Positions 7,999 to 46,072 of a stretch of 64,000 bases of DNA are shown here, piece after piece (positions within the stretch are counted from its first letter, which is position 1; each line of letters begins with the position of its first letter). The notes under the pieces are model-generated. The model was not told where the DNA came from. It was given only the letters and a program-made list of their open reading frames with translations, and searched no databases. Origin of the DNA: Escherichia phage APECc02. The stretch lies in sequence record NC_041869.1, one strand, 5' to 3'. A program made the translations under genes and the position numbers.

Positions 7999-8394
7999 TT
8001 ACTGAAACAGTGCGGATAAATTACCTTCTGGTGGGAACTTATCTGCCAAAAACGGTGTTAGCACAGTAGCCTTCTGAAGATCTGGGGTCCACTCGTTGTT
8101 CAGAACATCCCAGTAGTACGCAATGTTGCTGTGTGGGTGCCGCATTACGAACTTTTTCCCTTCGTAGTCATCTGAAACCTCTACAGAAGAAATAACAACA
8201 GAATCTTCAAGGGTTTCTTCATAGAAAGATCCGCCTTCAAATTTCCAACGAGATGCAAGAGCCCCTGCCTTGAACGCTGCAGATAACGGACTGTCGGCAA
8301 GAACATACATTTCTTGCACTCTGTCGCTGCGATCTTTGCTTCTTACGTTGTATACAGTATCTGAGCTATACTCAACACGGTATAGGCTTACCAT
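7999..8394 (-). CDS. family-B protein (HPxS...YW...WTP motif), paralog of 10202-10612
   Basis: shared motif FVMRHPHSNIAYYWD..WTP vs FVIVHPDSRVKHYWN..WTP. Confidence 0.55.
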   Translation of the reverse strand: MVSLYRVEYSSDTVYNVRSKDRSDRVQEMYVLADSPLSAAFKAGALASRWKFEGGSFYEETLEDSVVISSVEVSDDYEGKKFVMRHPHSNIAYYWDVLNNEWTPDLQKATVLTPFLADKFPPEGNLSALFQ

Positions 8395-8730: not shown

Positions 8731-8994
8731 TCACCCAACAACCATAGCTTCAAAAGGGGTCATGAACGAATAAACGGCATCATCATCTGCTTCAGGGAAT
8801 GCTCCCAAAGACTTCATGTCTGAGCCCTTGACAAATACAAGGTTTTGATCAAAGGCTTCTTGGGGGTCAATCCGATACATATCTCGTAGGATATCACTTA
8901 CCTCCTCATCAAGAGGTGAGTATGCTGTGCACGTTTTTCCGATCAAGCTTTGAGAATCAGGGTATCCACCTGAAGTTTTAAAATAAACAATCAT
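8731..8994 (-). CDS. family-A small protein (VFVKGSDMKSLGA motif)
   Basis: motif shared with 10613, 10857, 14516 ORFs. Confidence 0.5.
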   Translation of the reverse strand: MIVYFKTSGGYPDSQSLIGKTCTAYSPLDEEVSDILRDMYRIDPQEAFDQNLVFVKGSDMKSLGAFPEADDDAVYSFMTPFEAMVVG

Positions 8995-9085: not shown

Positions 9086-9355
9086 TTATTCCTCTACAAT
9101 CTCATACACATCCGGAGTTACAATCAACTCTTCTCCGTTACCCGGTGCAACAAACACCACCATTCCTTCAGGTGTGTGCTTTTTAGCCATCTCGATAACA
9201 TCTTCTCGCAGAGCTGGCTCCATCAGATCAAAACCTTCACCAAGGGCATCACGAACCACCTTCATATAGTCAACTGGTTGTGCTTCGACAATCATGCCTT
9301 CAACCAGTCCACAATTTTTGTCTGCCAGCTCAGTTTGGAATAATTTAATTTTCAT
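9086..9355 (-). CDS. hypothetical small acidic protein (MKIKL...YEIVEE)
   Basis: ORF co-oriented. Confidence 0.5.
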   Translation of the reverse strand: MKIKLFQTELADKNCGLVEGMIVEAQPVDYMKVVRDALGEGFDLMEPALREDVIEMAKKHTPEGMVVFVAPGNGEELIVTPDVYEIVEE

Positions 9356-9381: not shown

Positions 9382-9483
9382 TTAATAGCCGTAACCTAAC
9401 ACATTAACTACAACTGCGATTGCAAACATAATTTCAAAGCATGCAATCTCTACATTTGGGACTAATTTCTTAATCACACCCAT
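9382..9483 (-). CDS. possible 33-aa hydrophobic peptide
   Basis: short ORF with GAGGTG RBS in a 150-bp gap; below track size cutoff. Confidence 0.25.
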   Translation of the reverse strand: MGVIKKLVPNVEIACFEIMFAIAVVVNVLGYGY

Positions 9484-9505
9484 TGTAGCACCTCATTCTC
9501 CAAAG

Positions 9506-9811
9506 TCAATCTTTACTTTGCCTCTCCCCCTTACCTTTCTTTCTACCGCACTTAGCCAGTTGACGTGCTGCAACATCTACCATACGGTCAGTTGCCTCGT
9601 AAGCATCACTGCCTTTAGCTTTGGCAATAACTTCTTTTCCAGAATTGTCAAAAATGAACGCCATAACTTCCTGGTGATCATTTTCAACTTTTACACTCAC
9701 ACGTGCATAGTTGGCAGAGGGGTGCAAACGCTCCAGCTTAGACATTTTGTTGGAAATGAAAGACACCATACCTTCAGTGATTTCTACGTTGCCAGTGATT
9801 TCAATTTGCAT
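9506..9811 (-). CDS. hpf: ribosome hibernation promoting factor / RaiA (YfiA) family
   Basis: MQIEITGNVEITEG..KLE..VKVE..ARQLAK aligns along its length with bacterial HPF. Confidence 0.8.
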   Translation of the reverse strand: MQIEITGNVEITEGMVSFISNKMSKLERLHPSANYARVSVKVENDHQEVMAFIFDNSGKEVIAKAKGSDAYEATDRMVDVAARQLAKCGRKKGKGERQSKD

Positions 9812-9830
9812 AACGTGTTCCTTTTAAAGA

Positions 9831-9849
9831 AGAGGGGACCAAACCCTCT
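9831..9849 (-). terminator. hairpin (AGAGGG-GACCAAA-CCCTCT)
   Basis: inverted repeat with T-rich flank on minus strand. Confidence 0.4.
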
Positions 9850-9893
9850 TTGAAAACAATGATACTAAATCTGAAGCGTTGTGTCAACAGTTT

Positions 9894-10201: not shown

Positions 10202-10612
10202 TCAGTTTAGCTTTTCTTCAACAACCCCATAACTTGGGGCAGAGTCAAGAGCTTTCTGGTTTAAAAGTGGTGTAGCAGAATCTGCAAACGGTGTCCAAGT
10301 TTTTGTTCTGGCATTCCAGTAATGCTTCACTCTAGAATCTGGGTGCACTATAACAAAAACTTTTTCACTTGTCAACACATTAATTTCTTCCACACCTTTG
10401 CTGATAATTTCTCCGTCATATCCCCCGGTCTGGTATCCTTCGTACCAGGTTCTTGCATAGGCATAGCCAGCCTGCCAGCATGCAGCCTCCTCCGAGGTGG
10501 AGACTACGTAGAAGTCTTTCTCAAATTCTGGGATACGCCCTTGCTTTACGCTCCAAGCTCCGCGAATTTTCATTGTAACTTTGAACAGTTTATTTTTCAC
10601 AACGGTTACCAA
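10202..10612 (-). CDS. family-B protein, paralog of 7999-8394
   Basis: shared HPxS..YW..WTP..TP(F/L)L motif. Confidence 0.55.
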   Translation of the reverse strand: MVTVVKNKLFKVTMKIRGAWSVKQGRIPEFEKDFYVVSTSEEAACWQAGYAYARTWYEGYQTGGYDGEIISKGVEEINVLTSEKVFVIVHPDSRVKHYWNARTKTWTPFADSATPLLNQKALDSAPSYGVVEEKLN

Positions 10613-10867
10613 TCACAGCTCTACAATATCTGCATCTGACCCTGCCCCAAAGGCATAATAGGACTCTTCCCCGAAATAATATTCCGGTGCACCAGCAGCG
10701 ATCAGGTCTGATCCCAAGATAAACACCACGTTGTGGCCTACATAACTGTGATGTTGCCGCACAGGATCATCCCACGGCAACCCTTCAAAGTATACCGCAG
10801 GAACGACCTTTCCCTTCAGGAAGGATTGTCCCAAGTAGACGTTAGAATCAAGAATTTTAACCTTCAT
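10613..10867 (-). CDS. family-A small protein (MKVKIL...GSDLIAAGA...DIVEL)
   Basis: paralogous to 10857-11084 and 14516-14749. Confidence 0.55.
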   Translation of the reverse strand: MKVKILDSNVYLGQSFLKGKVVPAVYFEGLPWDDPVRQHHSYVGHNVVFILGSDLIAAGAPEYYFGEESYYAFGAGSDADIVEL

Positions 10868-45259: not shown

Positions 45260-45334
45260 GCCCTGTTAGCTTAGTGGATAAAGCAGCGGCCTTCTAAGCC
45301 GTTGACACTGGTTCGAGTCCAGTACGGGGTGCCA
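45260..45334 (+). tRNA. tRNA-Arg (anticodon TCT), CCA encoded
   Basis: cloverleaf folded by hand: 7-bp acceptor, anticodon loop CTTCTAA, GTTCGAGTC T-loop. Confidence 0.75.
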
Positions 45335-45338
45335 AATT

Positions 45339-45425
45339 GGGGAGTTATCCCGTAGAGGTAGCGGTGTAGACTGTAAATCTATTGTCATTGCGACTCGGGT
45401 GGTTCGACTCCACCACTCCCCACCA
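45339..45425 (+). tRNA. tRNA-Tyr (anticodon GTA), long variable arm
   Basis: anticodon arm AGACTGTAAATCT identical to bacterial tRNA-Tyr; acceptor pairs; CCA encoded. Confidence 0.8.
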
Positions 45426-45539
45426 AATTTACATTTTTAAATGCATAAATCATACAGATAATGGCATTGATATTTATCGTCGTTTATACTAGTCACTAAC
45501 TGCTCGAAAATCAGTGTCATTATCAGTATTGTTTATAAA

Positions 45540-45630
45540 TGAGGGTAGGGAGCAATGGTGCTCAAGCGGTCTTGAAAACCGTCCCGTTGAGGATGACTCG
45601 ATGATGGTTCGATTCCATTACCCTCAGCCA
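45540..45630 (+). tRNA. tRNA-Ser (anticodon TGA), long variable arm
   Basis: anticodon loop CTTGAAA, long variable arm, T-loop TTCGATT; 5' boundary uncertain by 1 nt. Confidence 0.65.
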
Positions 45631-45728
45631 TATTGTTGACCTTGTAATTAAGCGAAAGCCGGAAGCAGAACCGGATTATCAAATGTTACAGTCGTCATCG
45701 CCGACTAGCAACATGGTCAACATACTGA

Positions 45729-45825
45729 GCTAGGTAAGCCCTTTGGCAAGGGCGAGGATTTTTAATCCTGAAAATAGACGAGGTAGTCGTTGAATACATA
45801 GGTGGTTCGATTCCATCACCTAGCA
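45729..45825 (+). ncRNA. atypical tRNA-like element (acceptor and T-arm intact; possible TTT anticodon; ~31-nt variable region)
   Basis: GCTAGGT/ACCTAGC acceptor pairing and GGTTCGATTCC T-arm, but non-canonical middle. Confidence 0.3.
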
Positions 45826-45832
45826 CCTTTTT

Positions 45833-45908
45833 GCTGATGTAGCACAATTGGTAGTGCAATTGATTTGTAATCAATAGGTTGCAGGTTCGAGTCCTGCTAT
45901 CAGCACCA
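45833..45908 (+). tRNA. tRNA-Thr (anticodon TGT), CCA encoded
   Basis: acceptor GCTGATG, D-arm GCAC..GTGC, anticodon loop TTTGTAA. Confidence 0.75.
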
Positions 45909-45909
45909 T

Positions 45910-45984
45910 GGCCCTGTAGCTGGAAGGTTCAAGCAAGCGACTCATAATCGCCAGACGGTGGTTCAATTCCACCCAGGGCCACCA
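45910..45984 (+). tRNA. tRNA-Met or Ile2 (anticodon CAT), CCA encoded
   Basis: acceptor GGCCCTG/CAGGGCC, anticodon loop CTCATAA. Confidence 0.75.
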
Positions 45985-45995
45985 AATAATAAATA

Positions 45996-46072
45996 CTCCG
46001 CGTAGCTCAGCTTGGTAGAGCGCCTGATTTGGGATCAGGAGGTCGAGTGTTCGAATCACTCCGTGGAGACCA
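45996..46072 (+). tRNA. tRNA-Pro (anticodon TGG), CCA encoded
   Basis: canonical D-arm TAGCTCAGCTTGGTAGAGC, anticodon loop TTTGGGA. Confidence 0.75.

Follow-up and report, generated by a model that had tools for sequence, protein, structure and literature searches.

HPF-type factors bind vacant ribosomes, which are scarce in growing cells. Phage-encoded relatives have been described: Mizuno et al. in 2019 counted hpf with the ribosomal proteins that viruses encode and assigned the coliphage copies to the gammaproteobacterial HPFs (PMC6375957), and Mathieu et al. in 2020 noted hpf in five rV5-type isolates (PMC6969025). The gene analyzed here is orthologous to ORF144/gp139 of phage rV5 (ABI79209, YP_002003641), which by 2008 was annotated in the rV5 record as similar to a Klebsiella sigma54 modulation protein. 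Dozens of records name it 'sigma 54 modulation factor', 'ribosome hibernation factor', 'HPF' or 'RaiA'. In MT884008-11 and OR062525/OR062530 the orthologs are called 'ATP-dependent protease La type I', which is clearly wrong for a 105-aa S30AE protein. That hpf exists, is homologous to bacterial HPF and comes from a phage is already known from the databases and the 2019 paper.

Mizuno et al. expressed the rV5 gene in E. coli NM522 with pBAD24 as the vector. The crude extract contained peptides of rV5 HPF, among them the C-terminal VKIDFGE, and purified 70S or 100S ribosomes contained none; expression left the 100S peak unchanged, and the small 100S peak was not visibly reduced either. The ribosomes had been pelleted through 500 mM NH4Cl from cells harvested at OD600 = 1, the end of exponential phase, and the authors suggest that the negative result might stem from dissociation in salt or from the growth phase (PMC6375957). 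Elsewhere, a high-salt wash was used 'to remove any associated factors' before HPF add-back (PMC4889938). We consider the rV5 binding test weak because high salt strips such factors and because the cells were taken at the end of exponential phase. Its outcome lowers confidence in stable binding, yet it is compatible with binding and not decisive.

Our literature search found no Vequintavirus transcriptome or expression timing and no functional work on phage HPFs after 2019. There is nothing fundamentally new in the existence of hpf. Here we add its residue-level departures from cellular HPFs, the purifying selection acting on it and the frameshifted tail of the copy in the window. Lytic phages that carry hibernation factors are rare, and a clear phenotype would show how phages manage idle ribosomes.

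A short HPF-type gene in Escherichia phage APECc02

The window is the whole 64,000-nucleotide stretch of the APECc02 genome (NC_041869.1) that was analyzed, and the gene lies within it as follows:

9506..9811, minus strand: coding sequence of a short HPF-type protein (S30AE/HPF-YfiA family), 101 aa, supported by the ORF, Pfam and NCBIfam profiles, a PDB sequence match and a fold search with a structure model

The ORF runs from an ATG start to a TGA stop over 101 codons, and an exact-sequence look-up found its product to be identical to APECc02 YP_009593616.1. In Pfam, the protein matched PF02482 (Ribosomal_S30AE) with an E value of 8.2e-13 and 49.3 bits (gathering score 23.7), the match spanning residues 3-91 and profile positions 1-86 of 88; in NCBIfam, it matched TIGR00741 (HPF/YfiA family) with 47.3 bits (cut-off 40.9). 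Among all PDB chains searched with phmmer, its best match was E. coli HPF (2rql, 4v8h, 6h4n; E 5e-12), with residues 1-88 aligned to residues 1-88. Using E. coli HPF as a tblastn query, we obtained a single match in the window, the hpf ORF, with 43% identity over 88 aa; across the whole domain, identity was about 40-43%.

The initial annotation, made from the sequence alone and naming no strand, had claimed likeness to HPF/RaiA along the ORF, and the end-to-end alignment with E. coli HPF, together with the profile span, bears this out. All of the motifs it had named are found (MQIEITG, NVEITE, SKLER, VKVE and ARQL). It had proposed an HPF/RaiA profile search as a check, with a null result as refutation, and both profiles scored above their curated thresholds. 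Judged from its sequence, ORF 9506..9811 is a genuine, well-conserved phage copy of bacterial short HPF.

Distribution and selection

The description of the gene as phage-encoded was also confirmed: the 4 kb around hpf matched 119 records and, among the records listed, the flanking sequence was 97.5-98.5% identical to rV5-like Vequintavirus genomes. Using the window protein as a tblastn query, we found hpf in 116 rV5-like phage records, while the E. coli HPF query matched 128 of 50,697 phage records, about 116 of them rV5-like. A scan of IMG/VR contributed only two further rV5-like hpf loci. Across these collections, hpf is a signature of the rV5-like phage genus and rare among phages generally. 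Among the records with an rV5-type region are 18 MG0656xx entries ('Campylobacter phage', C. jejuni), with about 95-99% protein identity; wrong labels or contamination seem likelier here than a true host jump.

A word-indexed protein search gave six close relatives only, and an exhaustive search was needed to reach cellular relatives. Exhaustive phmmer against 1.84 billion cluster representatives gave 29 matches at E up to 1e-3, comprising one close relative (P0004; 65% identity, 103 aa) and cellular HPFs at no more than 45% identity, the best of which resembles an enterobacterial short HPF. P0004 is encoded on phage-like contigs of 125-137 kb, where the small-ORF block is syntenic and has the gene at the corresponding place. 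We assign these contigs to a sister lineage because no more than about one-third of the block can be aligned with Vequintavirus genomes, the nucleotide identity there being about 78-82%. The contigs (L004-L007, from E. coli assemblies and metagenomes) apparently represent an undescribed sister lineage of Vequintavirus with a 65%-identical HPF ortholog; it occurs in NCBI only as contigs in E. coli assemblies and is not in the phage collection searched.

Within the genus, the hpf core (88 codons) had dN/dS values of 0.02-0.13, and the comparison with P0004 gave dN 0.27 with saturated dS. These estimates clearly point to maintenance of the protein by strong purifying selection.

Predicted structure and subfamily

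The AF2 model of the window protein (pLDDT 86.3) has the element order E2-7, H13-29, E33-42, E47-55, E60-67 and H70-90. When this model was searched against the PDB with Foldseek, the first 36 matches were all HPF, YfiA or protein Y (pY) chains. Superposition on the HPFs of V. cholerae and E. coli gave TM scores of 0.84-0.92 and an rmsd of 1.1-1.6 A; these two were the best matches, with TM 0.84 for the query and 0.92 for the target and rmsd 1.1 A for V. cholerae HPF.

Below family level, the protein scored short of both equivalog models, with 56.4 bits for HPF (NF007780; cut-off 125) and 20 bits for RaiA (NF007654; cut-off 158). Identity to E. coli RaiA was 25% by tblastn, versus 43% for E. 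coli HPF, and no RaiA chain appeared among the PDB sequence matches at E up to 0.01. Compared with the PDB, the RaiA query sequence was 112/113 correct and the RMF query 55/55. By these measures, short HPF (YhbH) is a closer relative of the window protein than RaiA is. The RefSeq name 'ribosome-associated translation inhibitor RaiA' is right only at the family level, because the HPF model and identity favor short HPF. PF02482 was the sole Pfam domain detected, with no second domain found, and the protein stops 11-17 residues past helix alpha2. A long HPF is ruled out, as there is no C-terminal dimerisation domain; the length of 101 aa (105 in rV5) agrees with a single-domain short HPF of ~95 aa lacking that domain.

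Ribosome-contact positions

We aligned the phage proteins with 19 cellular sequences, namely E. coli HPF, RaiA and 17 cellular representatives. The phage protein retains the near-invariant residues of the family (G7, T12, K22, G58, A63, D69, Y71, D75 and Q84). In E. coli HPF, contacts with 16S rRNA have been reported for the basic residues K23, K26, K80, R83, K87, K89 and K91 (bioRxiv 10.1101/2025.10.07.680626; also S. aureus HPF mutagenesis). Five of the seven are retained, the equivalents of K23, K26, R83, K87 and K91 (K22, K25, R83, K87 and K91 in the numbering of the window protein). Both phage lineages replace K80 (by V or T) and K89 (by G or S), as well as E/D51 (M or S), T53 (F or R), M70 (A) and I74 (T), and the hallmark DMYAAID reads DAYEATD in both. 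Among the cellular sequences, K80, K89 and E/D51 are each conserved in 16/19 and M70 and I74 each in 15/19, position 53 being more variable.

Several of the replaced positions touch 16S rRNA in solved complexes (bioRxiv 10.1101/2025.10.07.680626). The replacement pattern is compatible with the same RNA-binding face at an altered, probably lower, affinity, a reading that agrees with the loss of the rV5 protein from ribosomes in high salt. Taken by itself, the pattern could equally reflect a changed target.

A frameshifted C-terminal tail

The window copy departs from its orthologs at the C-terminus, where two further features are located:

9526..9530, minus strand: G5 run (C5 on the plus strand) in the tail-coding sequence, from DNA alignments and protein variants
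9493..9525, minus strand: ancestral-tail sequence (KGKVKIDFGE plus stop in rV5), from DNA alignment

Orthologs usually end in …CGGKKGKGKGKVKIDF(G/L/W/V)(E/D), and most are 105 aa long. In the DNA alignment, the G run at 9526..9530 has one G more than in rV5, ime and L008, accompanied by an adjacent A-to-G change. The resulting +1 frameshift converts the usual C-terminus …GKGKGKVKIDFGE (105 aa) into …GKGERQSKD (101 aa). The usual tail absent from the window copy reads …GKGKVKIDFGE in rV5, and the last 11 residues differ. Past the A-to-G change, every base of 9493..9525 is conserved, out of frame and mostly beyond the new stop.

In phage Murica, the tract in question, GGGG(A)AAA, carries a -1 change, and the protein ends in …GKGKAK at 99 aa. 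The 101-aa tail also occurs in a second sequence (P0001), and because this sequence differs at two core positions and carries the same tail, we favor the reading that the tail is a real variant. The evidence argues for this, with a homopolymer sequencing error as the remaining possibility. We consider it unlikely that both tails are made by programmed frameshifting at the G5 run, given that this run is short and forms no standard slippery site.

The phage tail, which is disordered in the AF2 model, comprises 13-17 residues with a net charge of +4, versus 7 residues in E. coli HPF. The sister-lineage ortholog ends in …RTAKWDY, loosely similar to …VKIDF. This likeness hints weakly at a functional C-terminal motif, as it is seen in two lineages only and the end is missing in two viable isolates.

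Promoter, translation signals and neighboring ORFs

The signals that precede hpf and the ORF that follows it are located as follows:

9859..9887, minus strand: sigma70-type promoter, TTGACA-17 nt-TATCAT, 11/12 matches, from a motif scan; equivalent to rV5 P144
9819..9823, minus strand: Shine-Dalgarno-like AAGGA, 7 nt before the ATG, from the sequence; an RBS is annotated at the equivalent place in Murica
9382..9483, minus strand: 33-aa hydrophobic ORF, phrog_15151, equivalent to rV5 gp140, from the ORF list, the rV5 record and a PHROG match

At the place corresponding to the promoter, the rV5 record annotates 'Sigma70-type promoter; P144', and the sequence upstream of hpf is near-identical in rV5. 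The 65%-identical ortholog is also headed by its own TTGACA box, with AAACTG before it (AAACTGTTGACA). Two further candidate elements were rejected. A 5'-UTR hairpin at 9830..9850, between the -10 box and the RBS, folded no more stably than shuffled sequence (z = -0.1), and the 65%-identical lineage lacks it. The other element, a second site resembling a promoter (9509..9482), overlaps the next ORF's start codon and was attributed to chance, the count of such sites being that expected from shuffles.

The 33-aa ORF begins 9 nt past the ancestral hpf stop, which its GAGGTG RBS overlaps. The two genes are probably co-transcribed, and the overlap of RBS and stop makes translational coupling possible. 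The small hydrophobic ORF is conserved; in the sister lineage with the 65%-identical ortholog, it has no gene call.

More broadly, hpf lies within a long same-strand run of small ORFs, and the first 12.8 kb of the window has no ORF of at least 150 aa. The rV5 genome was described as containing '88 mainly small ORFs', and the hpf block is that stretch (PMC3606486). All eight neighboring ORFs tested matched PHROGs of unknown function, and a Pfam scan covering seven of the eight gave no match at E up to 0.01. Several Vequintavirus records give one neighbor, an 89-aa ORF at 9086..9355 on the minus strand, the name 'sigma 54 modulation factor' (ime_76 is an example). We regard this as an annotation error, apparently propagated from the neighboring gene, and not as a second HPF: the ORF has no Pfam match, and its sole PHROG match is phrog_11868, of unknown function. 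Using E. coli sequences as tblastn queries, we found no RMF homolog and no second HPF or RaiA within the 64-kb window.

Paralogous small genes flank hpf on the minus strand at 7999..8394, 8731..8994, 10202..10612 and 10613..10867. One pair, of 131 and 136 aa, belongs to phrog_7379, and another, of 84 and 87 aa, matches phrog_5009; all four genes are of unknown function, and the pairs suggest duplicated modules inside the small-ORF block. Elsewhere in the window, a tRNA cluster at 45260..46072 on the plus strand contains Arg-TCT, Tyr-GTA, Ser-TGA, Thr-TGT, Met-CAT and Pro-TGG. It includes a tRNA-like element of 97-99 nt at 45729..45827, to which ARAGORN assigned a four-base anticodon ('atcc') and Rfam a weak tRNA score of 35.5 bits; this could be a degenerate, intron-containing or long-variable-arm tRNA.

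Proposed role and alternative explanations

The initial annotation had read the gene as an HPF homolog that silences or stabilises ribosomes. The homology stands at the level of profile, pairwise alignment and fold, while the ribosome silencing or stabilising is a proposal; in its one, weak test, the rV5 ortholog was absent from salt-washed 70S and 100S ribosomes and left 100S unchanged. Modulation of ribosomes by phage HPF is nonetheless plausible. The reading we prefer, to which we give a probability of roughly 0.5, is that phage HPF is made early and binds the decoding channel of idle 30S and 70S particles weakly and reversibly, parking 70S rather than 100S ribosomes. This functional reading rests on homology, fold, a promoter-like signal and selection, from which we infer binding, site, timing and benefit.

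The protein would be a diverged short HPF of the YhbH type, consisting of one S30AE domain without a dimerisation domain. Host RNA polymerase would transcribe the gene from its own sigma70-type promoter, presumably early, and the product would then act like its cellular relatives. Contact with the ribosome may be made through the retained basic residues of helix alpha1 (K22, K25 and R28) and helix alpha2 (R83 and K87) and through the disordered, Gly/Lys-rich tail. Idle 70S ribosomes would be parked weakly and reversibly, a RaiA-like outcome with no 100S formation; parking of 70S and not 100S is expected because the window encodes no RMF, the dimerisation domain is lacking and contact residues are replaced. 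The likely benefit would be a pool of idle ribosomes that is buffered or protected during infection.

Mizuno et al. proposed a different role, in which the phage protein acts as an anti-hibernation decoy, competing with host HPF or RaiA for their site and perhaps, through its longer basic tail, with RMF. It would bind weakly without supporting 100S formation, so that host ribosomes would stay out of deep hibernation, or leave it, and be available for phage mRNAs; expression gave no increase in 100S (PMC6375957). The absence of K80, K89 and further contact residues is in line with weakened binding and ready displacement, the tail of 13-17 residues (net +4) exceeds the 7 residues of E. coli HPF, and in RaiA the tail reportedly extends towards the site of RMF (bioRxiv 10.1101/2025.10.07.680626). 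However, the tail varies and carries frameshifts in two phages that were isolated and are viable, an early sigma70 promoter suits any early function, and overexpression did not visibly lower the small 100S peak (PMC6375957). On balance, we consider the decoy a credible but less probable role. A more specific form, which strikes us as doubtful, holds that Vequintavirus HPF is a weakened, tail-extended anti-hibernation factor that occupies its site transiently, while its Gly/Lys linker and K-(I/W)-D-(F/Y) end disturb RMF or another partner. Were this true, 100S/70S hibernation would be prevented or reversed, the ribosomes of slow-growing or starved hosts would become usable by the phage, and V80, G89 and DAYEATD would be adaptive rather than the product of drift.

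The replacements at contact positions common to both phage lineages (DAYEATD, V/T80 and G/S89) would also suit a repurposed fold, in which an HPF/dsRBD-like scaffold was kept and the ribosome work lost. The only experiment was negative for ribosome association (PMC6375957), and Acb4 of phage SPO1, which is structurally similar to V. cholerae HPF 4HEI, illustrates that such a fold is adaptable to immune evasion (PMC11722364). Yet about 40% identity to true HPFs across the domain, with K22, K25, R83 and K87 kept, is unexpected if RNA or ribosome binding had been abandoned, and we judge repurposing to be quite improbable. Membership of the Acb4 anti-CBASS sponge family itself was rejected: PF13876 (Acb4) gave no match at E up to 1, and Acb4 chains were absent among the 50 best Foldseek matches in the PDB. 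The frameshifted C-termini of the window copy (APECc02) and Murica, together with the fact that no phenotype is known, might instead be taken to indicate a decaying, functionless passenger gene picked up from one of its hosts. Such decay is very hard to reconcile with a core dN/dS of 0.02-0.13, conservation in a second lineage at saturated synonymous divergence, the presence of hpf in 116 rV5-like records and its own promoter and ribosome-binding site, which leaves this the least credible of the explanations.

Comparison with known systems

Among cellular proteins, the closest comparison is E. coli short HPF (YhbH; 2rql, 4v8h, 6h4n), which shares ~40-43% identity over residues 1-88 and likewise lacks a dimerisation domain. 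Unlike it, the phage protein has a longer, Gly/Lys-rich, disordered tail, misses the NF007780 cut-off and has K80, K89, D51, T53, M70 and I74 replaced; no partner RMF is encoded within the phage window, and the rV5 ortholog showed neither stable ribosome association nor an effect on 100S. E. coli RaiA (YfiA, protein Y) is similar in fold, family and the presence of a C-terminal extension past helix alpha2, but identity to it is only 25% and the score against its equivalog model is far below the cut-off. The RaiA tail is also different in character, with ~25 residues that are basic and then acidic (net -4), whereas the phage tail is Gly/Lys-rich (net +4).

Among phage proteins, Acb4 (PF13876, SPO1) is comparable in being a small protein whose monomer resembles the dsRBD/HPF-type fold, while its extra helices and tetramer are features of Acb4 itself (PMC11722364). 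Phage bS21, bL12 and bL9 and the HPFs of jumbo phages (Cronobacter GAP32 and Xanthomonas XaC1) are likewise host-derived, ribosome-associated auxiliary genes of lytic phages. Incorporation into ribosomes was shown for bS21 and bL12, whereas it was not seen for rV5 HPF (PMC6375957), and the HPFs of the jumbo phages were acquired separately and are more distant. The nearest system is rV5 ORF144/gp139 itself (PMC6375957), which is the same gene at the same position, behind the same promoter and with a core (residues 1-88) that is 99% identical; the window copy differs from it in being frameshifted, with 101 rather than 105 aa and a C-terminus that lacks the …VKIDFGE end.
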